This document shows positions 18,434-56,695 of a stretch of DNA of 64,000 nucleotides, piece after piece (the first letter of the stretch is position 1; the number at the start of each line of letters is the position of its first letter). A program made the translations under genes and the position numbers. Under the pieces are notes generated by a model that was not told where the DNA came from, made no database searches, and saw nothing but the letters and a program-made list of their open reading frames with translations. Origin of the DNA: an uncultured Acidobacteriota bacterium (GTDB taxonomy: Bacteria > Acidobacteriota > Thermoanaerobaculia > UBA5066 > DATFVB01). The stretch spans positions 256,001 through 320,000 of the forward strand of contig CAWEYG010000001.1 of the NCBI GenBank assembly GCA_963813155.1, in the 5' to 3' direction.

Positions 18434-19228
18434 ATGCCCGACTCGATCGAACGCCTTCTGCTCCTCGTGGAGCGGCTTCGCCGCGAATGTCCGTGGGACC
18501 GGGAACAGACGTTCGCGACCGTCCAGACCTTCCTGCTCGAGGAGGCTCACGAGGTCCTCGAAGCGCTCGACCGGGAGAGCCCGGATCAGCTCCGCGGAGA
18601 GCTCGGCGATCTTCTCTTCCAGATCCTGTTTCTCTCGCGGCTCGCCCAGGAGCGGGGCTGGTTCGGCATCGAAGACGTCGCTTGTTCGATCGAGAAGAAA
18701 ATGATCGAGCGCCATCCCCACGTCTTCGGCACGGAAAAAGCATCGGACGCCTCGGAGGTCAAGGCCAGCTGGGAGAAGCGGAAGCGCGAGGGCCGGGACC
18801 CGAAGAGCGATCCTCTCGGAACCGTCCCGAAGGCGCTGCCGTCGCTCTCGGCCGCCCTGCGAATGAGCGAGCGAGCCGCGGACCTCGGATTCGACTGGGA
18901 ACGCGACTCGGACCTTCTCGCGAAGGTCGAGGAGGAGATCGGCGAAGCCCGGCGCGAGGCGGAGCTGGGAAACACCGTGGGGAGCGAGGAAGAGCTCGGC
19001 GACCTGCTCTTCGCCCTCGCGAACTGGGGGCGGAAACGGAAGATCGACCCGGAACGCGCCCTGCGGCGCGCGAACGAAAAATTCCGGCGGCGATTTCACC
19101 GGGTTGCGGAGCTCGCTCACGAAGAGGGTCGAGACGTTTCGGGGTGCTCCGCGCCGGAGCTCGACGCATTCTGGAATCGCGTCAAGGAAGAGGAGAAGTC
19201 CGCAACTCCGAAACCCGGCACGCCGTAA
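18434..19228 (+). CDS. mazG: Nucleoside triphosphate pyrophosphohydrolase MazG
   Basis: CPWDREQT, EEAHEV, ELGDLLFQ, RHPHVFG, second EELGDLLF, ANEKFRRRF. Confidence 0.95.
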   Translation: MPDSIERLLLLVERLRRECPWDREQTFATVQTFLLEEAHEVLEALDRESPDQLRGELGDLLFQILFLSRLAQERGWFGIEDVACSIEKKMIERHPHVFGTEKASDASEVKASWEKRKREGRDPKSDPLGTVPKALPSLSAALRMSERAADLGFDWERDSDLLAKVEEEIGEARREAELGNTVGSEEELGDLLFALANWGRKRKIDPERALRRANEKFRRRFHRVAELAHEEGRDVSGCSAPELDAFWNRVKEEEKSATPKPGTP

Positions 19229-20099
19229 CGCCCCGGTCGCGAAGTTTCGGAAGCCGGCGCTCGAGAACCGCGAGCGTCGTCGGGTGCGGATGACCGATCG
19301 CGACGGCGAAACCGTCTTTTCGGCAAGCCGACTCCGCCGAGTCGAGCTGGCGCTCGACGGACTGTTCGTCGGCATCGTCGTCGAGAAAGACGCTCCGCGA
19401 GAGCACGGGAACGCCGAGCCGCATCCCCACGTCCGGGACGACCGTCAGGCCGGTCGTCCGGCTGTCGAGAAAGAAAAGGCCGCGTCGCGACAGGCCCCCG
19501 AGCAGCGCCGACACGGTCTTCCGGTCGGCGGTTCCTTTCGACCCCATGTGGTTGTTGACGCCATCCGCTCCCGGCACGCTCTCCAGGTCCGCGGCGAGCG
19601 TCGCCTCGATTTCCCCCGCGGACATCGAATCGCGGATCAGTCCGGGCCCCGGATTCATCCTCGGGTCGAGAGGTTCCATCGGAAGATGAAGAAGGACTTC
19701 CTTCCCGGCCGCGCGAAGGGCGTCGGCCGTTTCGCGGCTCCGGGGAAGCTCGGGAAGGACCGCTCCGGCGAGCGGCACCCGGATGCGCAGAAGTCGATCG
19801 AGAGCCCGGGGGTCGTTGCCGAGGTCGTCGATCACGATCGCGAGGCGGGGGCTCGCGGGAGCGCCGGAATCCGCCGTCGCGACGATTTCGTCGGTTTTCG
19901 AGGAGCGATCGCGCTGCCGGGCTTCCCGGGCCGGCGCCGGTTCGCGCGGAACGCGCGCCCGGGGCTGCTCGGCATGGGGAGACTCACGGGCCGCTGGCGC
20001 GACGGGGCGACGGTTCCACAGAAGGCCGATGGCCAGGCCCAGCCCAAAGGCCGCGGCGGCGACGAGAAGGGTACGGGATCCTGTGGGTTTCTTGGAAAT
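19182..20099 (-). CDS. Divergent polysaccharide deacetylase (YibQ/DUF610); start uncertain, probably non-canonical near 20099
   Basis: LAIVIDDLG, HLPMEP, GVNNHMGS, FFLDSRT, VFLD, AIGHP. The frame stays open upstream of GTG 19835 and encodes an N-terminal membrane anchor. Confidence 0.88.
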   Translation of the reverse strand: MSKKPTGSRTLLVAAAAFGLGLAIGLLWNRRPVAPAARESPHAEQPRARVPREPAPAREARQRDRSSKTDEIVATADSGAPASPRLAIVIDDLGNDPRALDRLLRIRVPLAGAVLPELPRSRETADALRAAGKEVLLHLPMEPLDPRMNPGPGLIRDSMSAGEIEATLAADLESVPGADGVNNHMGSKGTADRKTVSALLGGLSRRGLFFLDSRTTGLTVVPDVGMRLGVPVLSRSVFLDDDADEQSVERQLDSAESACRKDGFAVAIGHPHPTTLAVLERRLPKLRDRGVTACRVSELRTSPLP

Positions 20100-20112
20100 C
20101 GAATTCGCCGTG

Positions 20113-21276
20113 TCAGGAGGCGGCAGGCTTCGCGACGGTGCCGCGCGCGACTTCGACGGCGCGACGGATCACGGGGTCGCCATCGGACTTCTCCCCCGGG
20201 AAGAGATCGACGCGAATCGTCGGACGCAGGGCCCGCCCGGTCAATTCGGTTCCGGACGGCGTCACGTACTCGCCGACCGTCATGTACAGCGCGCCTCCGG
20301 ACGACATCGGAAGGAGTTTCTGGACGATCGCCATGCCGGCCGTCGGTTCGCCGACGAGATCGCTCCCCGCCCGGTCGTGCAGAGCGCCGGCGAAGACCTC
20401 GGGAGGCCCCCCGGATCCGCTGTCGATCAGAACGACCGTCTTGCCCTTCCAGACCTGAGTTCCGGAGGTCGAAAACGTCTTTCCCGCAATCTTCTTGCCG
20501 GAGACTTTCGCCACTTCTCCCGACGGGATGAAGAGCGACGCGGTTCGGACCGCCTCTTCGATGTCCCCTCCGGCCGAGTCCCTCACGTCGACGATGATTG
20601 CCGGGGAGCCGGGCGGAAGCGATTCGAGCTGACGCTTGACCGCCGCGGCGACGCCGGGCTGAAAGTACGGGATGCGAATCACCGGAACCTGCTCTTCCGA
20701 TCGCTTCGTCACCTCCGCCGGCTGGTACGCCTTCCGCGCGACGCGGACCGTGACCTCGCGCTCGTCTCCGCCCCGCAGAAGCCGCAGCGACGTCGCGGAA
20801 CCCTCGGGCCCCGAAAGACGAGCCTCGATCTCCCAGAGAGACTGATTGCGGGACGGGGCGCCTTCCACGGAGAGAATCACGTCGCCCGGCTTGACGCCGG
20901 CGGCCTCCGCGGGAGAACCCGGCACCGGCGCGACCACGAAGGCGAACCCGCCGCGACGCCCGAGCACGAGACCGGAGTCGGACGCCTTCGACGCCGAAAA
21001 AGCCCGATACTTCGCCATCTGCCCGGCGGAAACGTAGTACGAATAGGGGTCGATCGCGTCCGTCACGCCGTCGTAAGCGCCCGCCAGGAGGGCCGACGTG
21101 TCGACCGGCTCGACGTAGTTCGTTCGCGTGAGATTGAGCACTTCGGTGAAGATCGCGAGCGGCTTCAGGACGGGGTCCTTGCCGGGCGCGAGGATCGGCC
21201 CCTTGAGGGCGGTCAGCAGCACCAGCGCCGCGATCGACGCCAGGACGAAAGCGAGACGGGACCGATTCGACTTCAT
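20113..21276 (-). CDS. S41/CtpA-family PDZ protease homolog, catalytic Ser/Lys apparently lost
   Basis: NYVEPVD, DPYSYY, PDZ segment (PGSPAEAAGVKPGDVI), DVRDSAGG, YVTPSG. SASASE reads SGGPPE and TFGKG reads TAGMA. Confidence 0.88.
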   Translation of the reverse strand: MKSNRSRLAFVLASIAALVLLTALKGPILAPGKDPVLKPLAIFTEVLNLTRTNYVEPVDTSALLAGAYDGVTDAIDPYSYYVSAGQMAKYRAFSASKASDSGLVLGRRGGFAFVVAPVPGSPAEAAGVKPGDVILSVEGAPSRNQSLWEIEARLSGPEGSATSLRLLRGGDEREVTVRVARKAYQPAEVTKRSEEQVPVIRIPYFQPGVAAAVKRQLESLPPGSPAIIVDVRDSAGGDIEEAVRTASLFIPSGEVAKVSGKKIAGKTFSTSGTQVWKGKTVVLIDSGSGGPPEVFAGALHDRAGSDLVGEPTAGMAIVQKLLPMSSGGALYMTVGEYVTPSGTELTGRALRPTIRVDLFPGEKSDGDPVIRRAVEVARGTVAKPAAS

Positions 21277-21324
21277 CTTGGCGATTCTAACACCCGGAAA
21301 GCCCTGCGCATTCCGGCGGCGAAA

Positions 21325-24300
21325 TCACCTCAGCCACCCCAGCGGGTCGGTCGCCTTCTGATGGTCCCGCACTTCGAAATAGAGAGACGGCTCGGTTTCG
21401 CCCGGCCCGACTCCGACCAGGCCGACCCGGTCCCCGGTGGAGACGACATCCCCGACCCTCACGACGATCGACCGGAGCCGCGCGTAGAGCGTCAGGACCT
21501 CGTCCCCGTGGTCGAGCACCGCCATGTTTCCGTATTCCGGGAACCACCGGGCGAACACGACTCTCCCGGAGTAGACGGCCGTCACGGGAGATCCATCCGG
21601 AGCGAGGATCTCGACGCCGTTGGACACGGTCCAGGCGTCGAACCGCGGATGGCGATGGCGTCCGAACGTGACAGAGATGCTTCCCCGGGCCGGCCAGTCC
21701 AGAACGCCCTTCCACGGGCGCGGGGAGCCGGCGGCGCCCGAATCGCCCCGGGAAAGGAGATCGAGCAGCGATTCGAGCCGTTGCGCCTTGTCCGAGAGCT
21801 CGGTGACCTGCTTTCGGGATTGCACCGCTTCGGACTGGGAGCGAGAAAGCAGGCGAAGCCGCTCCTGCTTCAGCGAAGCGATGCGCGCCTCCTGCTTGCG
21901 GTCCTCGGCGAGAAGACGGTCGGTTTCGGCGGCGAGCGCGGTTTCCGCGCTCAGGTCGTCCTCCAGCCGGCGTCCCGCCTCGGTGAAGCGCTTGAGGGAC
22001 TGGGCATCGGCGCGCGCCAGGCCGTCGAGAGTCTCGAGGGCGAGGAACACCTGCGACGTGGTCCGCGTCGAAAGAAGCACCTGGAGATAGCCGAAGCGTC
22101 CGAGACGCGACAGGAGCAGGATCCGGGAACGCAGAGCGCCCAGCGACTTCTGTCGCTGGGCGCGGGCCTGCGCGAGATCCAGGGACGTCTCCCCGCTGCG
22201 CCGCGCCAGATCGTCCCGGCGCGCGGCAATCCATTCGCGCTCCCTTCCCGCCATTTCCAGCCGCAGATCGAGCGCCTCGACCTCCTGGCGCAGCGAAGCC
22301 GTCTTCTTTTCCGCTTCCCGAAGCCGCCTCTTCGAGTCTTCGACTCGAGCCTGCAGGCGCTGCAGGTCCTGGCGTCCGGATTCGGCCGGCGTTCCGGGCG
22401 GATCCGCGCGCGCCGCCGAAGGGACCCCGACGCAGGCCGCAAGCGCAACGCACGCGGCGATTCCGTTTCGACGGTGCCGGCCGGAGCGGGAAGCGCCGCC
22501 CAGCCGCTTTCGGAGCTTCGAGAGAGATTCGGAGACCTCGCGCGACGTCTCCGGGGAGGCCGGGCGGCCCCCGAAGGATTCCACCCGGTAGATTTCGACG
22601 ATTTTCCTCGCGAGGCCGGCCGCGTACGCGCCCGCGGACGCAAACCCTCGAATCACCTCGGAAGAGGCGGCCGAATCCGAAAGAGGCCCGATCTTCCGCC
22701 GGTGCAATTTCCGCAGCTCCATGTATCCCGCCACCCCGGGGGAACGCCGTCCTCGCCGGGCCCGCCGAAGCAGAACCCGGGCCAGCCCGGCGAGCAGAAC
22801 GGCGAGGAACGCGACGAGGACGGGAGCGAGCCGCGGCGTTCGCACCGAGGACTCCAGGCGCGCGATCAGCGCTCTTCCGATTTCGATCAGTTGCACCTGC
22901 TCGAGCGAGCTGAACCCGAGGACATTGCGATCGTAGAAGAATTCGATCTCGTTCCCCAGCTCGGTGATCTTCTTCCAGACCGACACGGTCGTGACGCCGG
23001 GCCGGCCCTCCGCCGGCGTCGGGTCGAAGACCCGGAATCCCCGGCCGTCCACGTCGGCCTCGACCCAGGCGTGGAGATTGCTCCCGCGCACGAGAATTTC
23101 CGAAGAAAACGGCCCGAGCTCGCCGCCGAGCGAGCCTGTCGCGAGCCGCGCGGGAATTCCCTCCGCGCGCATCATCAGCGCGAGGGCGCTCGCGAAATAT
23201 TCGCAATGACCCTGCCGCGTGCGCAAAAGAAAATCCACGACCGGCTCGCCTCGGGCCGGCGGAGGATCGAGGCGGTACAGGAACCCCTTCGAGAAGTAGC
23301 CGACGAGACGGCTCGCGACGGCCCGGCGATCCGAGGCTCCGGCGGCGAGCCGGTCCGCGAGATCGGCGATCTCGGGAGGAACGTCGCGGAGAGTCACGCC
23401 CGTGCGGCCCGGTCCCGCTCCGTCCACCTGCGGCACGTACTCGACGCGGTAACGTTGTCCGCCGATCGGGCCGGGCGGCGCGACCGTGGCGTCGGAGGCG
23501 ATCGAGAGCTGCGAAGACATCGCCGAGATCGCCGTCGCGCCGTAGGGAACGAACAGGAAAGACGACGCCAGCGACGACGCTTCGATGTCGACCGCGCGGC
23601 CGGCGGGAGGATGCGGGAGCGCGACGGCCGTGCGATACGGCTCGGGGATCTCGACTCTCGCGTCGATGTTGGGAAGGCGCGCCATCGGCATTCCTTCCCT
23701 CGTCCATCGCCCCTCGGAGTAACGGTTGAAGGTCGTTTCGCGTAGCCGCAACGGATCCGCGATTTCTCCTCGCGAAGCCTGCACCCTCAGGAGGATGCGG
23801 TCGCTCCTCTTCGACGACGGGAAGGAAGTCAGGTCGACGCGGTCCGACGTGAAGAACGAGCCGCCGAAGGTCTCTTTCGGAACCGGCGCGGTCGCGAAGG
23901 GCGTTTGAAGCCGCGGAAGCGCGACGAACAGGGGGATCGCCAGGGCCGCGATGGCAACCACCGCGAGCAGCGACATTCCCGCCGTCGGGACCCGCGCGAA
24001 AAATCCGGCGGGGGGAGACTCGTCGAAGTCGGACAGGATCGCGATTCTCGCGAGGCAACGGAAGGACACGACGGCGATGAAGGCGAGGTACAGAAGCGAG
24101 GCGACGTGGGTCGAAGTCGAAGCCGCGTCGAGGGTGAGAAAAAAACAGAGCAGCAGGACCATGCTCTCGTCCCGGGACGACCGAAGGGACGCGAGCTTCG
24201 CCGCCGCCGTGAAAAGCAGGAGGTTCGTCGCCGTCTTGACCAGCCCGTGGTGCAGGAATCGGACCTCGCGGTAGAAGAAGCCGACGTAGAGAAGGGCAAG

Positions 24301-24504
24301 AACGTTCAGGACCGAGTTGGACAGTTGCAACGGGCGCGCTCGCCGCGCCCGGAGAAACACGTACAGGAGCAGGGCCTCGTAGGCGACCAGGACGCGAACG
24401 TCGAGGACTTCCGTCCAAGGCAGAGGCAGCGGCGCCGCGGCGGCAAGCGGCCAAAGGGCGGCCTGGTGGGCGGCCCGGGAGCCCCGGGAGAATCGCTCGC
24501 TCAT
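21325..24504 (-). CDS. Transglutaminase-like membrane protein (TgpA/DUF3488 type) fused in frame to an EnvC-like coiled-coil/LytM (M23) domain
   Basis: N-terminal TM bundle, GHCEYFASA/HAWVE/FDPTP triad, TM helix, then a signal-like segment, coiled coil and LDWPARG...GRVVFARWFPEYGN...LYFEVR. ATGA overlap with the DUF58 stop. Confidence 0.85.
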   Translation of the reverse strand: MSERFSRGSRAAHQAALWPLAAAAPLPLPWTEVLDVRVLVAYEALLLYVFLRARRARPLQLSNSVLNVLALLYVGFFYREVRFLHHGLVKTATNLLLFTAAAKLASLRSSRDESMVLLLCFFLTLDAASTSTHVASLLYLAFIAVVSFRCLARIAILSDFDESPPAGFFARVPTAGMSLLAVVAIAALAIPLFVALPRLQTPFATAPVPKETFGGSFFTSDRVDLTSFPSSKRSDRILLRVQASRGEIADPLRLRETTFNRYSEGRWTREGMPMARLPNIDARVEIPEPYRTAVALPHPPAGRAVDIEASSLASSFLFVPYGATAISAMSSQLSIASDATVAPPGPIGGQRYRVEYVPQVDGAGPGRTGVTLRDVPPEIADLADRLAAGASDRRAVASRLVGYFSKGFLYRLDPPPARGEPVVDFLLRTRQGHCEYFASALALMMRAEGIPARLATGSLGGELGPFSSEILVRGSNLHAWVEADVDGRGFRVFDPTPAEGRPGVTTVSVWKKITELGNEIEFFYDRNVLGFSSLEQVQLIEIGRALIARLESSVRTPRLAPVLVAFLAVLLAGLARVLLRRARRGRRSPGVAGYMELRKLHRRKIGPLSDSAASSEVIRGFASAGAYAAGLARKIVEIYRVESFGGRPASPETSREVSESLSKLRKRLGGASRSGRHRRNGIAACVALAACVGVPSAARADPPGTPAESGRQDLQRLQARVEDSKRRLREAEKKTASLRQEVEALDLRLEMAGREREWIAARRDDLARRSGETSLDLAQARAQRQKSLGALRSRILLLSRLGRFGYLQVLLSTRTTSQVFLALETLDGLARADAQSLKRFTEAGRRLEDDLSAETALAAETDRLLAEDRKQEARIASLKQERLRLLSRSQSEAVQSRKQVTELSDKAQRLESLLDLLSRGDSGAAGSPRPWKGVLDWPARGSISVTFGRHRHPRFDAWTVSNGVEILAPDGSPVTAVYSGRVVFARWFPEYGNMAVLDHGDEVLTLYARLRSIVVRVGDVVSTGDRVGLVGVGPGETEPSLYFEVRDHQKATDPLGWLR

Positions 24505-25538
24505 GCCGCGACCCTCCGGCGGGTCTCTCCCGGGCGCGGGGAAGGAAACGGCGGCGCGCCCTCGACCGGGAGCGCCGGCAGCCGGGCGAGCGCCTCCAGG
24601 ACGCGGCGGCGCTGGGAGAACCCGCCTCCGGGCGCCAGCGAAAACCCCCGGGCCGCGAGCCCGACCTCGCCGCCGGAGGCGAGCACCCGCAGCGCCTCCC
24701 CCGCCGTGAGCGAGATCGAACGCTCCAGCCTTTCGATCTCGGCCGGATCGAGAGGACGGGACAGCGCGTTCTCGACGAGGAAAACGACCGAGCTCGACCG
24801 CTCGTCTTCGCGCTCCCGGACGATCCACTTCTGCATCCGAGCCGACTGCTTCCAGTGAAGATCGCGAACGTCGTCGCCGGAGGAAAACTCGCGCAGCGTG
24901 CGCACCTCGGCGCCGAAGCCGCGGCGGGCCGCCGAATGCCTCCGCCCGCTCGTCGAGTCCTGGGCGGGCTCCGGGAGGCCCGACCGCTCGGGCGCCGGAA
25001 AGACGACGATCTCCTCCGGAATCCGCGCGTCCGCGTACTTGCGAAAAAGCCCCAGCGGAAACCGGCTCATCACGCCGGCGTCCGCCGTCGGAAAAACGCC
25101 CCGCCGGGGAAATACCGCCTCGACGAGATACCTCCTCTCCTCGCCGGGCGCGAGGGGCTCGAGGTAGAGCGGAGCCGGAAGCGCCTCGTGGAGAAACCAG
25201 ACTCCCTGGGCGGTAAACCGGCGCGAACGGCATTTCGCGACGATCAGAAGATTCGACGGCCGGCCCGCGACGATTTCGCCCTGCGCCCGGACGGTGCATT
25301 CGACCGCGCGGACGTTCCGGCGAGACACGATGCCGGAAACGACCATCCCGGCGAGCAATCCCGCCAGAATCGTGTAGAGCCCGTTGTTCGCCGTGTTCGT
25401 CGCCGCGATCGCGACGAGCAGCGTGAGGAGAATGTACGAGAGTCCGAGGTTCGTGATCCGAAGGTGCCAGGAGGGGACCAGACGCGTCACGCGAGGTTTC
25501 GTCGAGGGCGGATCCTCCGGCCGGATCTCGCGGTTCAT
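24501..25538 (-). CDS. DUF58 domain protein (MoxR-associated)
   Basis: AATNTANNGLY, FPLGLF, LREFSSGDDVRDLHWKQSAR, VRERE. Confidence 0.9.
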   Translation of the reverse strand: MNREIRPEDPPSTKPRVTRLVPSWHLRITNLGLSYILLTLLVAIAATNTANNGLYTILAGLLAGMVVSGIVSRRNVRAVECTVRAQGEIVAGRPSNLLIVAKCRSRRFTAQGVWFLHEALPAPLYLEPLAPGEERRYLVEAVFPRRGVFPTADAGVMSRFPLGLFRKYADARIPEEIVVFPAPERSGLPEPAQDSTSGRRHSAARRGFGAEVRTLREFSSGDDVRDLHWKQSARMQKWIVREREDERSSSVVFLVENALSRPLDPAEIERLERSISLTAGEALRVLASGGEVGLAARGFSLAPGGGFSQRRRVLEALARLPALPVEGAPPFPSPRPGETRRRVAA

Positions 25539-25540
25539 CT

Positions 25541-26476
25541 TCAGACCGGCACGGGCACCTCGGAGAGGATCTTGCGGATGATCTCCCTCTCGCGGGAACC
25601 CGTTCCGAAGCCGTCGGACGACACGGAAAGAATGCGATGCGCCAGGACCGCCTCGGCGACGGCTTTCGCGTCCTCCGGAAGCGCGAACTCTCGCCCGGCG
25701 AGGAGCGCCCGCGCCTGCACCGCGCGAAACAGCGCCTGAGCGCCCCGGGTCGAGACGGGGAGCCGCAGGTCGGACCGCTTGCGGCTCGCCTCGATGAGCG
25801 CGTAGATGTAGTCGAGCATCTTGTCCGCAACGCGAACTTCCTGAACGCTCGCCTGCAGTTTCGCGATCTCGTCCGGCTGGAGAACCGGCACGACCGATTC
25901 CAGGGCCCTCTCGGCGCCGCCGCTCTGGAGGAGTTTCTTTTCCTCCGCGGGGGCCGGGTAACCGAGGGAGATCCGCAGAAAGAAACGGTCGAGCTGCGAT
26001 TCCGGCAGCGGGTAGGTCCCGAGGTACTCGACCGGATTCTGAGTCGCCACGACGAGGAACGGCTCGGGCAGGCCGAGCGTGCCTTCGTCCGTCGTCACGC
26101 GGCCCTCGTTCATCGCCTGCAACAGGGCGGACTGGGCCTTGGGAGTGGCGCGGTTGATCTCGTCGGCGAGGATGATGTTGCCGAAAATGGGGCCGGGATG
26201 GAACTCGAACCGGTTGTGCGAGGAATTGAACACCGAAACGCCGAGGATGTCGGCGGGCAGCGTGTCGCTCGTGAACTGAATCCGCGAAAATTTCAGGCTC
26301 AGGGCGCGGCCGAGCGCCCGGGCGAGCGTCGTCTTGCCGACTCCCGGCACGTCTTCGATCAGGACGTGGCCATGGGACAGAAGCGCGATCAGGAGAGACT
26401 CGATCGCGGCGGGGTCGCCGCGGTACACCGAACCGATCGTGTCGCGGAGCCTCTGGAGCGGGAGCGCGCTCGTCAC
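25541..26476 (-). CDS. MoxR-family AAA+ ATPase
   Basis: HVLIEDVPGVGKT, RIQFTSDTLPADILG, LADEINRATPKAQSALL, ATQNP, LPESQLDRF. GTGA overlap. Confidence 0.95.
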   Translation of the reverse strand: MTSALPLQRLRDTIGSVYRGDPAAIESLLIALLSHGHVLIEDVPGVGKTTLARALGRALSLKFSRIQFTSDTLPADILGVSVFNSSHNRFEFHPGPIFGNIILADEINRATPKAQSALLQAMNEGRVTTDEGTLGLPEPFLVVATQNPVEYLGTYPLPESQLDRFFLRISLGYPAPAEEKKLLQSGGAERALESVVPVLQPDEIAKLQASVQEVRVADKMLDYIYALIEASRKRSDLRLPVSTRGAQALFRAVQARALLAGREFALPEDAKAVAEAVLAHRILSVSSDGFGTGSREREIIRKILSEVPVPV

Positions 26477-27468
26477 CGCGAGCTCGAAAGGAAGTCGCGT
26501 ACGGCATCGCGAAGGTCGCCCTCCCGCGAGCTCGGAAAAACGAGGATCCCTTCGGCCGTCGCCGCGACGACCGAATCGGAGATCCCGACCGTCAGCACCG
26601 GCTGGTCCGGAGAGGAGAGGACGAGGTTTCCGTTCGCGTCGCATCCGAGCAGTTCCCGGAGCGCCCGGTAGGACCCGACGTCGTTCCAACCGGCGTCGCA
26701 CGGGACGCAGAAGACTTTCTTCGCCTTTTCCATGATCGCGTAGTCGAAAGAGATCGAAGGCAGCCGCGCATAAGTCTCCGCTACGCCTCCGCCCGTCTCC
26801 CGGTCGTAACGACGGCACGCCTCGAGCAATTCCGGATCGACCCGGGAGGCCTCCGCGATCAGGTCGGAAGGACGGAACACGAAGATTCCGGCGTTCCAGA
26901 GAAAGTTTCCGGCGGTCAGATATTTCCTTCGCGGTTTCGAGATCCGGCTTCTCGACGAAGCGGCGCACCCGGCGGGCAGCGCCCCCGCCTTCGCCCGGCT
27001 CCGCCTCGATGTATCCGAATTCCGTCTCGGCTCGGACCGGAACGATTCCGAGCGTCACGATCGACCCCTCGCTTGCAGCCGTCGCGGCCGCCGCCCGAAG
27101 CGCGGCGCGCAGGGCCTCCGGATCCGACACGGACTGGTCGGCCGGAACGACCGCGGTGATCGGATCGCCGTCGCGCTCGAATCGCAGGGCGGCGCAGAGG
27201 ATGGCCGGGCCCGTGTTGCGGCGCGAGGGCTCCAGCATCAGGCTTCCCTCCGAGAGCTCCGGCAGCTCGGAGAGCGTCAGCTCCCGGTACGATTCCGCTG
27301 TCGCGACGAAAAAGTCACCGCCGAGAGGCGCGAGGCGCTCGTACGTGTCGCGGAGGAGCGACCGTTTTCCCCCGAGCGAAGAGGAATTGCTTCGGACGTT
27401 CTCTCCGTCGAAAGGGGCCAGAGTCGCGTTCCGGCGCCGCCCGCCAGCAGGAGAGAACGGATCTTCAC
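26473..27468 (-). CDS. manC: Mannose-1-phosphate guanylyltransferase (three apparent +1 frameshifts near 27402, 27380, 26923)
   Basis: LAGGAGTRLWPLS / RPKQFL / EPSRRNTGPA, PADQ, FGYI, FVEKP / WNAGIF, ISFDYAIMEK, GWNDVGS, spread over successive frames. Confidence 0.88.
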
Positions 27469-53636: not shown

Positions 53637-54518
53637 CTAGACGATCCCTTCCCGGACAGACATCGCCGCGCCGAGAAGCCCCGCGGCCGCTCCCGCGAGG
53701 GGAAAAATCGCGAGGGCCGACAGCGGAAAGAAACGCACCCAGAAGATCGAGAGAACCGGGTGCGGCGAGAGCTGGAGGAACCGCGTCGCCGCGGCGTACG
53801 TCGCGGTGAGCAGCACGAGGGCGAGAACGCCTCCGCAAGCGCCTTCGAGAGCGCCGTGGAGCCAGAAAGGCGCCCGAATTTTCGCTTCCGTCGCGCCCAT
53901 CAGACGCATGATCTCCACCTCGTCGCGATGCTGGTCGAGCGCAAGGCGAACCGCGGAAGCCACGGAGAAGATCCCCGCGAGGCACAGGACCCCTCCGAGC
54001 ACGTAGGCGAATCGCTTCACCACGGAAACGGCGTCCCGAAATCGGGTCTCGAAGACCGCTTCCTCCTGAACCTGCTCGACGCCCGGCAGCTTGCGCGCCT
54101 TCGAAGCGAGCCGCGTGGAGGAGTCGAGGGAGCTCCGCGCCAGAACGATCTCCAGGACGGTCGGAAATTCGAGATCCGGCAGGCGCAGCAGGGCGGGCCG
54201 CAGGTCCGGAAACGCGGTGAGAAAGTGCTCGCGCGCCGCCGAAGGGCGCACGATCCGGACCCGGGTGACTCCGGCCTCTCCCGCGATCGACGCGGCGACC
54301 GCCCTCGCGTCGGCCTGGGGCGCCAGCGTCACGACGAGAGACGGAGGCACTTCCACGTTCGACGCGAGGCGCGAGACGTTCTGCGTGAGCAGCAGGAGAA
54401 GGCCGGGAATGTAGAGCGCGAGAGTGATCAATCCGACGGCGAGCACCGTGAGCCCGGGACCGCTTCGCGCGATCGACCAGGCCTCCGCGAAGGCGTGGCG
54501 CAGCGCGACCCGGATCAC
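53637..54518 (-). CDS. ftsX: Cell division permease-like protein FtsX
   Basis: 4-TM layout, [21 protein letters not shown]; directly downstream of ftsE. Confidence 0.88.
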
Positions 54519-55228
54519 GCCATTGGAAGGAAAGGCGCTTCCCGCGCGGCGAGAGCGGCGGCGGGTCGGATCTCGACCTCGCGAAGCCGGCCGCGCTCGA
54601 GCGTGAGAACCCTCTTCCCCATTCGCCGGATGAGCTCGATGTCGTGCGTCGCGATGACCACAACGGTCCCGCGCAGGTTGATCTCCGCGAACAGATGCAT
54701 GATCTCCTGCGAGAGCGCCGGATCGAGATTTCCGGTCGGCTCGTCCGCGAGCAGCAGCTGCGGCTCGTTGACGAGGGCCCTCGCGATCGCGACCCTCTGC
54801 TGCTCGCCGCCCGAGAGCTCCGGAGGGTAGGCGTTCATCCGGTAGTGAAGCCCGACCTGCTTCAGGACCTGGTACGCCCGCCTCTTCTGTTCCGCCGGAG
54901 CGGTGCCCAGGATGTTCTGGACGAACGCGAGGTTTTCAAAGACGGTCTTGCGCGCGATGAGCTTGAAGTCCTGGAACACGATCCCGACGGTCCGGCGGAA
55001 GTACGGAAGCTTCGAACGGGGAAGGACCCCGATGTTGCGGCCGTTGACGACGATCTGGCCCTCGCTCGGCAGCTCGTCGCGAAAGAGAAGCCGGAGCAGC
55101 GTGGTCTTTCCAGCGCCGGAAGGCCCCGTGAGGAAAACGAACTCCCCCTTCGCGACGCTGAAGGAGACGTCGATCAGCGCGTGCCGGTAGTGGCCGTAGT
55201 CCTTCGAGACGTGGAAAACGTCGATCAC
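54515..55228 (-). CDS. ftsE: Cell division ATP-binding protein FtsE
   Basis: [50 protein letters not shown] overlap with the gatB stop. Confidence 0.94.
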
Positions 55229-56695
55229 GCGTCGAGCAGCTTTCGGAGGATCTCGGTCAGAACCGCCGGATCGGCCCGCCCGCCCGTCGCCTTCATCGCC
55301 TGTCCGACGAACCAGCCGAGCGTGGCCTTCTTCCCGGCGCGGTAGAGCGCGACCTGTTTCTCGTTGTCGCGAAGAATCGCCTCGACGGCCGGGAGAAGTG
55401 TCGAAGTATCCGCAAGGAGCGTGAGGTTCTTCGATCGGATGATTTCGGAAGGAGACCCTCCGCTCGCGACCATTTCCTCCAGGACGACCTTTCCGGCCGA
55501 CCCCGAGATCTGACCCGACTCCACGGCCCGCAGCAGCTCGCTCAGGGCGGCCGGAGAAACGGAGAACTTGCCCGCGTCCTCCCCGCTCAGGCCTTTCTCC
55601 TTCATCCATCGAAGGACTTCCCCCGAGACCCACGCCGATGCCAGCCGCGGCGAAATCGAAGCCGCGACCGCCTCGAAATACTCCGCCAGCGGCCGCGCCG
55701 AAGCGAAGAGTTCCGCGTCGGATTCGGGAATCCCGTACTGCGACTCGAGACGGATCTTCTTCGCACGCGGCGTCTCGCGCAGGGAAGAGCTCACCTGCAC
55801 GATCCACTCCTCGGCGATCTCCAGCGTCCCCAGGTCGGGCTCGGGGAAATAGCGGTAGTCGTGCGCTTCTTCCTTGCTTCGCATCGCTCGCGTGCTGTTC
55901 GTCGCGACGTCGAACAGACGCGTCTCCTGGACGATCGGCAGCCCCGACGCCATCGCCTCGGCCTGGCGCTCGGCTTCGTGCTCGATCGCCCGGCCGACGT
56001 TGCGAATCGAGTTCATGTTTTTCACCTCGACGCGGGTGCCGTAGGGATCGGTCTCCGAACGCCGGACGGAGATGTTCGCGTCGCAGCGCAGGTTGCCCTC
56101 CTCCATGTTCGCGTCGGAGATCGAAAGCGCGCGGAGGAGCTTGCGGAGCTCCGTCAGATACGCCATCGCCTCCGCGGCGGACCGGATCGAGGGCTCCGAC
56201 ACGATCTCCAGCAGGGCCACCCCGGCGCGATTCCACTCGACGAGGGTGACCGTGTTCGGAACGTCGGGAAACGGGTTTTCGTGGAGCGACTTCCCCGCGT
56301 CTTCCTCGAGGTGCGCGCGCACGAGCGGGACGGACTTCGACGCCGCGTCCGTTCCGATCTCGATCGCCCCGCCCGTGCAGATCGGGCGGTCGAACTGGGT
56401 GATCTGGTAACCCTTCGGCAAATCCGGATAGAAAGTAGTTCTTTCGCGCAAAACGGGACTGGCGGTGGATCGTCGCTCCCACCGCGAGCCCAAACCGGAT
56501 CGCGAGAGTCACGGCCTCGCGGTTGACGACCGGCAGGGTGCCGGGAAATCCGAGGCAGACGGGGCAGGTCGCGCTGTTCGGTTCGGCCGCGAACGTCGCC
56601 GGGCAGGGGCAGAACATCTTGGAGGAGGTCGCGAGCTGCGCGTGGACTTCCAGGCCGATCACCGGAAACACCTTCAGTTTTTCAGCGACCGGCAT
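55225..56695 (-). CDS. gatB: Asp/Glu-tRNA amidotransferase subunit B (apparent +1 frameshift near 56432)
   Basis: IGLEVHAQL...RKNYF in one frame; [43 protein letters not shown] in the next. Confidence 0.96.

Follow-up and report, generated by a model that had tools for sequence, protein, structure and literature searches.

A tgpA-envC gene fusion created by an inversion in a family of uncultured Thermoanaerobaculia

What becomes of a secreted protein when its gene is joined, without a stop codon, to the gene of a polytopic membrane protein? This question is raised by a 64,000-nt stretch of DNA with a G+C content of about 68% (the window) from an uncultured Acidobacteriota bacterium of the class Thermoanaerobaculia (contig CAWEYG010000001.1, positions 256,001 to 320,000). 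On its minus strand, one open reading frame encodes a transglutaminase-like membrane protein of the TgpA family and continues into an EnvC-like protein with a degenerate LytM domain. EnvC works in the periplasm with FtsEX and amidases. A sequence-only reading of the window had taken the region from 21325 to 24504 as a single frame of 1059 amino acid residues (aa), and as either a real fusion or a polyprotein released by signal peptidase. The translation, the Pfam matches, and a continuous G+C bias at third codon positions (GC3) agree with the single frame, and the evidence given below establishes that tgpA::envC is a real, inherited gene fusion.

The frame that ends at the stop codon 21325-21327 stays open as far as 25830, and the ATG at 24504 is a plausible start, overlapping by 4 nt (ATGA) with the stop codon of the upstream DUF58 gene. 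The GC3 is 0.78-0.87 along the whole fusion gene including the junction, and only this frame shows a coding signal. It was confirmed that stop codons are absent from all of the minus frames between 22655 and 21953, and that no in-frame ATG, GTG, or TTG precedes the signal-like segment at the junction: none was found from 22584 to about 22300, where CTG 22503 and ATC 22461 are the only rarer candidates. Owing to its high G+C content, the window has many long open frames on either strand. Two spurious ones overlap the fusion gene (19783-23745 on the plus strand, 1320 aa; 21287-24454 on the minus strand, 1055 aa), and their translations are Arg/Pro/Gly-rich nonsense.

Are both halves complete? 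The scan with hidden Markov models that had been suggested for this frame was run with Pfam and gave TgpA_N, Transglut_core, and Peptidase_M23. I aligned 20 fused proteins (alignment A1), to which all of the counts of invariance refer. Topology was judged from Kyte-Doolittle windows and charge counts, and AlphaFold2 (AF2) models were used with their per-residue confidence (pLDDT). The TgpA half begins with seven helices within aa 7-195, seen in the hydropathy profile and in the AF2 model (H7-23 to H175-195; pLDDT mostly 70-89). After the first ~200 residues, there is a 355-aa domain whose core aligns to the periplasmic domain of Pseudomonas aeruginosa TgpA (6g49_A, 2.7e-19). The motifs GHCEYF, HAWVE, and FDPTP are present in the translation, and the putative catalytic triad C434, H478, and D494, which had been called intact, is invariant in 20/20 fused proteins. 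The last transmembrane (TM) helix is followed by a tail that reaches the point where an unfused TgpA stops (…RLKKLA*). The tail is kept in all 20 fused proteins (…PATRAYLRLRRLH…GFA…IVEIYRAEAFGG…RELRRL.R.LRR), with AF2 helices within aa 589-670 (pLDDT about 64-86). It has 23 Lys and Arg residues against 8 Asp and Glu residues and is therefore predicted to be cytoplasmic by the positive-inside rule, a location that its hydropathy and its likeness to the P. aeruginosa protein also suggest. For P. aeruginosa TgpA, six TM helices are predicted, with aa 180-544 forming a periplasmic domain, and a PhoA screen is reported to have found it exported (PMC3507681).

The C-terminal 369 residues matched, over their full length, the EnvC chain 8tzk_E of an FtsEX-EnvC structure in a phmmer search of the PDB (1.8e-27; query 21-368 to chain 39-380). 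Other EnvC structures were also matched (8i6o_E, 6tpi_A, 8hd0_E, and 4bh5_A; the LytM domain matched 6tpi_A, 4bh5_A, and 8hd0_E). The coiled coil has a pLDDT of mostly 77-91, falling to 53-61 at its tip, and its start is conserved (R.DL.RLQARVEDSRRRL). By analogy of fold, its two helices would be antiparallel, and the start of the first helix (alpha1) would thus lie at the LytM end. An invariant LLLSRLGRFGYL motif (aa 796-807) is located just ahead of the hairpin tip; the invariant residues of the tip region in A1 are L798, S799, R800, G802, R803, G805, Y806, and L811. The motif region aligns to residues 117-136 of the Vibrio cholerae EnvC chain, a stretch reported to include several FtsX-contacting residues (bioRxiv 10.1101/2023.10.06.561269). 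The LytM domain had been described as lacking zinc ligands. The ligand motifs of M23 peptidases are HxxxD and HxH. Compared with a canonical M23 protein of the same genome, all of the metal-binding and catalytic His and Asp residues are lost: HxxxD is replaced by SxxxE, the His of YxH by Arg, and HxH by SxY, and these replacements are invariant in 20/20 fused proteins. What the fused EnvC lacks is a separate gene that has a start codon and encodes a cleavable signal peptide at the N-terminus. No further envC or tgpA was found in the genome, where the remaining matches are M23 domains only. Both halves belong to known families, and each shows the sequence features of its family save those altered by the fusion.

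Is the fusion common among relatives, or might it be an artefact or a pseudogene, with two genes misjoined through a lost stop codon or an indel error in a long-read metagenome-assembled genome (MAG)? The assembly does contain frame-broken genes, such as an NTP_transferase gene in three pieces at 26500-27462, and the fusion copy of a close relative has a frame break near aa 300-312. However, the contigs of four soil or rhizosphere metagenome runs from four studies have no indel over 22100-22900. The reads at the junction had been named as a check; it was made on metagenome contigs, not raw reads, and revealed neither a stop codon nor an indel. The best holder may be the source sample, while a 1199-nt contig from another study covers the whole of the 22100-22900 stretch with 37 substitutions and no gaps, and over 22376-22640 the sequence agrees letter for letter with a contig of 265 nt that comes from a third study. 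The listed substitutions leave the frame open and are mostly conservative, and 22 further differences lie outside this list. There are 22 metagenome runs listed for the lineage, with no RNA run among them.

I searched 30 genomes of relatives. These include the fused relatives G001-G004, which belong to the same family as the window's own genome (G000) and represent two genera, and the sister families f2 and f3 of the same order (12 genomes each); G002 and G008 are unpublished genomes, neither of which alone carries any claim. G002 (same genus, 81%), G003 (about 61-63%), and G004 (other genus, a one-contig genome, about 60%) each gave a full match to aa 1-1059 without a stop codon, and G001 (about 90%) is contiguous over aa 288-1059 across the junction. 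The frame break of the G001 copy lies in the TgpA part (G001:C16, about 291784-291845), and a database protein of 703 aa (P0003) is the downstream piece of this broken copy. Either the assembly is wrong here, or the tgpA half is broken while the EnvC half remains in frame. In G005, two contigs (C87 and C189) both end inside the junction, in the GC-rich and Ala-rich hydrophobic segment; their ends flank the junction, and the upstream contig reads into the hydrophobic segment without a stop codon. Evidently, the short-read assembly breaks at this segment. Neither the TgpA half nor the EnvC half was found in G006, which is 51% complete.

A search of long proteins in databases revealed 20 protein clusters of 1040-1069 aa carrying PF11992, PF01841, and PF01551. 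They come from NCBI, ENA, JGI, and Logan, and their EnvC parts share 63-87% identity. One of the 20 clusters is labelled as a Thermoanaerobaculia MAG, and the named records are from Thermoanaerobaculia or uncultured Acidobacteriota; the automatic names of some JGI records mention both halves. In a representative library of 1.84 billion proteins, one 50%-identity cluster (P0014) spans both halves among the best 150 of 93,280 matches, and thus the architecture appears to be confined to this lineage, although weaker, independent fusions may lie below these ranks. A word-based protein search found the fused clade only, plus two M23-only proteins. No TgpA-EnvC or EnvC-transglutaminase fusion is described in the titles and the opening parts of the abstracts of the literature found. 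Since independent contigs agree without indels, since five genomes and 20 clusters keep the frame at 55-87% identity with invariant catalytic and structural residues, and since the genome has no second tgpA or envC, there is hardly any chance that the fusion is an artefact or a pseudogene.

How did the two genes come together? In 12/12 f2 genomes and 12/12 f3 genomes, the tgpA and envC parts are found at different places, and on single contigs the two genes are 0.27-1.8 Mb apart. Thus, the fusion is derived, not ancestral. The comparison with relatives that the sequence-only reading had proposed was divided in its outcome: the genomes of the same family keep the fusion, whereas all of the 24 sister-family genomes have two genes. 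The unfused TgpA proteins of f3 end with …RLKKLA*, …RLKAAI*, or …KKLAS* (5/5 clearly read, out of seven loci), where the fused proteins continue. The unfused EnvC has its own GTG or ATG start and a normal N-terminal signal peptide. The ancestral tgpA locus has the order recA / pgpA-x-NTP_transferase-moxR-DUF58-tgpA and faces a convergent glycosyltransferase cluster ending in Bac_transf. The ancestral envC locus has the order methyltransferase / Phosphodiest (about 710 aa)-envC-S41 ctpA-yibQ / mazG / DUF1844-TPR. The left flank of the former and the right flank of the latter meet at the fusion in the window and in G004, while the leftover flanks, Bac_transf and Phosphodiest, adjoin convergently in G000, G001, G002, G004, and G005 (C2:144009-149083 in G000; 1408857-1412746 in G004). 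G003 is uninformative on this reciprocal junction, as its Bac_transf and Phosphodiest genes are on two short contigs. These gene orders show that a single inversion, which broke at the stop codon of tgpA and at the first codons of envC, gave rise to both junctions. Both junctions are present in both genera, which indicates a single ancestral event. The history may have had two steps, with the inversion followed by the loss of a short spacer and the stop codon.

Origin-symmetric inversions are a common type. In G004, the junctions are at 1.41 and 3.67 Mb, and dnaA, at 2.493 Mb, is about 50 kb off the point halfway between them. In the unfused genome G016, dnaA is flanked by the two loci at distances of 1.37 and 1.45 Mb, provided that the contig is circular. 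These positions look like the signature of an inversion roughly symmetric about dnaA. Between Bac_transf and Phosphodiest of G000, there is an open reading frame of about 500 codons on the plus strand (C2:145301-146947) with a coding-like GC3 of 0.81. A similar spacer of 2.7 kb is present in G001 and G002, whereas that of G004 has only about 440 bp. A tblastx comparison of the 1.8-kb reciprocal-junction spacer with the loci of the relatives gave high-GC noise only.

What lies at the joint itself? The signal-like stretch RRNGIAACVALAACVGVPSAARA spans aa 677-700 (about 22405-22476). It had been noticed as a segment preceding the coiled coil, and its main part, NGIAACVALAACVGVPSAARA, can be aligned to the signal peptides with which unfused EnvC proteins begin. 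By this alignment, the segment is the former signal peptide of EnvC, a cleavable one. A candidate signal peptidase I site, A-R-A/D, is located between aa 700 and 701. The segment varies in sequence and yet is hydrophobic in 20/20 fused proteins. Its stretch free of charged residues has a median length of 16 aa and a range of 13-27 aa (13-14 aa in six members and 19-27 aa in some); that of the true last TM helix of TgpA is 15-22 aa. There are 4-8 Lys or Arg residues among the 15 residues ahead of the segment (the n-region), and a site with small residues at positions -3 and -1 is present in 18/20. The Pro/Ala-rich linker after the segment is variable, about 6-30 aa, with about 6-9 aa in the window's genus, and AF2 gave only an 11-residue helix of low confidence at the segment. 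The window's genus also has about 12 extra residues at the joint (GGASRSGRHRRNG), which are absent in the other genus. The conservation of an A-x-A site was considered as an argument for cleavage and was dropped, because the site is not enriched over shuffled linkers.

Is EnvC translated only as a part of the fusion? In G000, G001, and G004 (three of the five genomes), the stretch from the TgpA tail motif to the coiled coil is free of in-frame ATG, GTG, and TTG codons. G002 has a single TTG, located within the hydrophobic core, and in G003 the segment is preceded by two GTG codons. None of the rarer start codons is conserved in position in the five genomes. Since there is neither a standard internal start codon nor a second envC, the only EnvC is translated within the fusion in at least three genomes. 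The following scenario is proposed. In the ancestor of one Thermoanaerobaculia family, an inversion deprived tgpA of its stop codon and envC of its start, leaving the two genes in one frame. EnvC is now made as the C-terminal 360 residues of TgpA. The basic cytoplasmic tail of TgpA would serve as the n-region for the former signal peptide, and the hydrophobic segment would insert in an N-in/C-out orientation, so that the coiled coil and, behind it, the dead LytM domain reach the periplasm. Signal peptidase I might cut after the A-x-A-like site (A700/D701), freeing a normal EnvC, and the fusion would then be a tolerated "polyprotein" that couples only the synthesis of the two proteins.

I prefer the release of EnvC by signal peptidase I to the other readings and give it an even chance. 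The arguments for cleavage, all indirect, are the descent of the segment from a cleavable signal peptide, the shortness of its core, with a median of 16 uncharged residues, the low-confidence AF2 helix of 11 residues at this place, and the presence of signal peptidase I genes. In addition, the linker has about 6-9 aa in the window's genus, and, judging from the antiparallel hairpin, the start of alpha1 would be about 105 helical residues away from the FtsX-binding tip. On the other hand, the segment may be an uncleaved eighth or ninth TM helix that keeps EnvC covalently on TgpA, which seems somewhat unlikely. If EnvC is tethered in this way, the transglutaminase-like enzyme would be recruited to FtsEX and the septal amidases, or EnvC would be held at TgpA sites, and the fusion would have been kept because both activities cooperate on the cell wall. 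Such a tether would fit the retention of the fusion, with both parts constrained, across two genera and 20 clusters, the uncharged spans of 19-27 aa in some members, and the Pro/Ala-rich linkers of up to about 30 aa in several. It would also fit a membrane-parallel state of EnvC: EnvC is described as vertical in P. aeruginosa or horizontal at about 50 Å above the membrane in V. cholerae (bioRxiv 10.1101/2023.10.06.561269), and a cell-wall-linked essential role of TgpA is proposed for P. aeruginosa (PMC3507681). However, the origin was an inversion breakpoint rather than adjacent, functionally linked genes, and the genes are unlinked in 24/24 sister-family genomes. Besides, the hydrophobic core is short (13-14 aa in six members), the linker in the window's genus leaves the alpha1 start far from the FtsX-binding tip, and the segment has no sequence conservation that would suggest packing on the TgpA bundle. 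A further idea is that ribosomes initiate just ahead of the segment, at a start codon that is non-canonical or peculiar to the lineage, and that most EnvC arises in this way, so that there would in effect still be two proteins. The GTG codons V659 and V666 of G003 and the CTG at L668, common to G000 and G001, might serve, and the apparent ATT start of the neighbouring yibQ-like gene makes rare starts plausible in this lineage. Nevertheless, the five genomes have no candidate at a common position: in G004, the only ones are an ATC and a CTG, within the core or beyond it, and the CTG of G000 corresponds to CTC in G002. No stop codon precedes the candidate starts, so the tgpA ribosomes would read through anyway, and no Shine-Dalgarno-like GGAGG motif was seen by eye in the junction DNA of G000. 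Thus, internal initiation as the main source of EnvC is highly improbable.

Several points weigh against a fusion that arose by an origin-symmetric inversion and whose EnvC part is set free by signal peptidase I. Every genome is an uncultured MAG, dnaA is a mere proxy of the origin, and the circularity of G016 was assumed. The GTG codons of G003 make separate initiation possible in some members. The A-x-A site occurs in 14/20 fused proteins, compared with 11.2/20 expected from shuffled Ala-rich linkers; being no commoner than composition predicts, it gives cleavage no support. The hydrophobic span is only slightly below that of the last TM helix of TgpA, and this helix is equally variable in sequence, so that a signal-peptide-like variability is a weak argument. 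With a horizontal EnvC and linkers of up to about 30 aa, a tethered EnvC could reach FtsX. The full-length AF2 model (20-row alignment) is poor, with a mean pLDDT of 60.8 and a predicted TM-score (pTM) of 0.32, and uninformative on the global geometry; only the secondary structure of its confident parts was used. The complex prediction of the TgpA periplasmic domain with EnvC (aa 201-555 and 700-1059, slices of A1) scored 0.00 in two runs, which is evidence neither for nor against. Taken as a whole, an accidental, tolerated fusion whose products separate again fits equally well as a functional tie between the transglutaminase and the amidases.

The features are collected in Table 1. The MoxR-DUF58 context expected for TgpA was found immediately upstream, where AAA_3 and DUF58 genes precede the fusion and the latter shares the ATGA overlap. 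Downstream, the ctpA-like gene begins 48 nt after the fusion, as a ctpA-like gene also follows envC in unfused relatives, and the yibQ-like gene closes the envC block. The order envC-ctpA-yibQ is the same as in unfused relatives, in which an S41 peptidase and Polysacc_deac_2 come next. In Escherichia coli, envC is presumably followed by yibQ. In the yibQ-like gene, the part ahead of the membrane anchor contains no ATG, GTG, or TTG. It does contain an in-frame ATT, with S/P-K/S-K/R-rich residues after it, whose position is shared by the window, G001, G002, G004, and G005, and this suggests a conserved ATT start codon in the fused family; the yibQ-like gene of G016 has a normal start codon overlapping the S41 stop codon. 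The NTP_transferase gene (ManC-like, minus strand) matches its G016 relative in the frames -2, -1, and -2, and the two frame breaks are either assembly indel errors or the mark of a pseudogene. The genes that had been read as FtsEX at 53.6-55.2 kb have the corresponding Pfam matches, and FtsX is presumed, on the basis of sequence, to be the membrane partner of the EnvC part. The genome carries Amidase_3 genes (8 matches, some of them fragments) and signal peptidase I genes (4 matches).

Table 1. Coordinates of the fusion gene, its parts, and the neighbouring or partner genes in the window (AF2, AlphaFold2; TM, transmembrane)
Feature	Position	Strand	Basis and remarks
tgpA::envC fusion gene	21325..24504	-	1059 aa; ATG at 24504, stop 21325-21327; Pfam, GC3, relatives
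TgpA_N domain	23428..24393	-	aa 38-359; Pfam PF11992, 4.5e-24; helix bundle and start of the periplasmic domain
Transglutaminase-like core	23020..23364	-	aa 381-495; Pfam PF01841 Transglut_core, 9.3e-20
Last TgpA TM helix	22765..22833	-	aa 558-580; hydropathy; AF2 helix H560-586; followed by RRARRGRR
TgpA C-terminal tail domain	22468..22761	-	aa 582-679, 98 aa; K+R 23, D+E 8
Internal signal-like segment NGIAACVALAACVGVPSAARA	22405..22467	-	aa 680-700; aligns with N-terminal signal peptides of unfused EnvC
EnvC coiled coil	21751..22389	-	AF2 helices aa 706-812 and 816-918, with the turn of the hairpin around aa 813-815
Degenerate LytM (Peptidase_M23) domain	21343..21624	-	aa 961-1054; Pfam PF01551, 6.5e-24
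DUF58 gene	24501..25560	-	Pfam PF01882, 3.4e-10; frame signal; start approximate
moxR (AAA_3 ATPase)	25541..26450	-	Pfam PF07726, 3.8e-59, and AAA_lid_2; start approximate
S41 C-terminal processing peptidase, ctpA-like	20113..21276	-	Pfam PF03572, 2.9e-29, and PDZ
yibQ-like divergent polysaccharide deacetylase	19182..20099	-	tblastn with the G016 Polysacc_deac_2 protein, 49% identity
ftsX	53637..54518	-	Pfam PF02687 and PF18075 (FtsX extracellular domain)
ftsE (ABC ATPase)	about 54515..55240	-	Pfam PF00005, 4.2e-37; start approximate

What might the fusion mean? It offers a fully mapped, replichore-symmetric inversion that created an in-frame fusion with both of the reciprocal junctions preserved, and an important division gene that was rescued through read-through from an upstream gene. 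It is a natural test of whether a Sec signal peptide is cut or becomes an anchor when some eight membrane helices precede it, and of whether a tethered EnvC can function. If EnvC is cleaved off, the fusion would be an evolutionary curiosity limited to one uncultured soil lineage, while a tether, if true, would give the first functional hint for TgpA. A tethered EnvC might even be a "Rosetta stone" that places MoxR-DUF58-TgpA in the septal cleavage pathway of FtsEX, EnvC, and the amidases, and TgpA might then, for example, act at the site of division on proteins associated with peptidoglycan, by trimming or cross-linking them; I regard this idea as distinctly improbable.

The two halves can be compared with known systems. 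The EnvC part resembles the EnvC of E. coli, V. cholerae, and P. aeruginosa in its coiled coil, tip motif, and metal-free LytM domain. Unlike these, it has no start of its own, and its signal peptide is internal, after 679 residues of a polytopic protein. Its place also differs from that of envC in unfused relatives: it would be transcribed together with moxR-DUF58-tgpA rather than with the Phosphodiest gene upstream. The TgpA part resembles P. aeruginosa TgpA (PA2873, 6g49), which is reportedly critical for viability, in TgpA_N, the triad core, the predicted late TM helix and cytoplasmic tail, and the position after moxR-DUF58. In contrast to that protein, its stop codon is missing, and the tail continues, through another segment predicted to cross the membrane, into a complete EnvC.

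PcsB, CwlO, RipC, NlpD, and ActS are also coiled-coil or LytM proteins tied to FtsEX or activating amidases. They are stand-alone secreted proteins or lipoproteins, and the abstracts found describe none of them as fused to a transglutaminase-like membrane protein. The cytochrome b-c1 precursor FbcH of Bradyrhizobium consists of a polytopic protein and a periplasmic protein and is split by signal peptidase at an internal signal peptide into two mature proteins. The tgpA::envC product is similar in that its frame runs from a membrane protein into a periplasmic one that has kept its signal peptide. While FbcH joins two subunits of one complex, tgpA and envC are unlinked in the sister genomes. A polyprotein of the FbcH type would be the closest functional analogy to the fusion.

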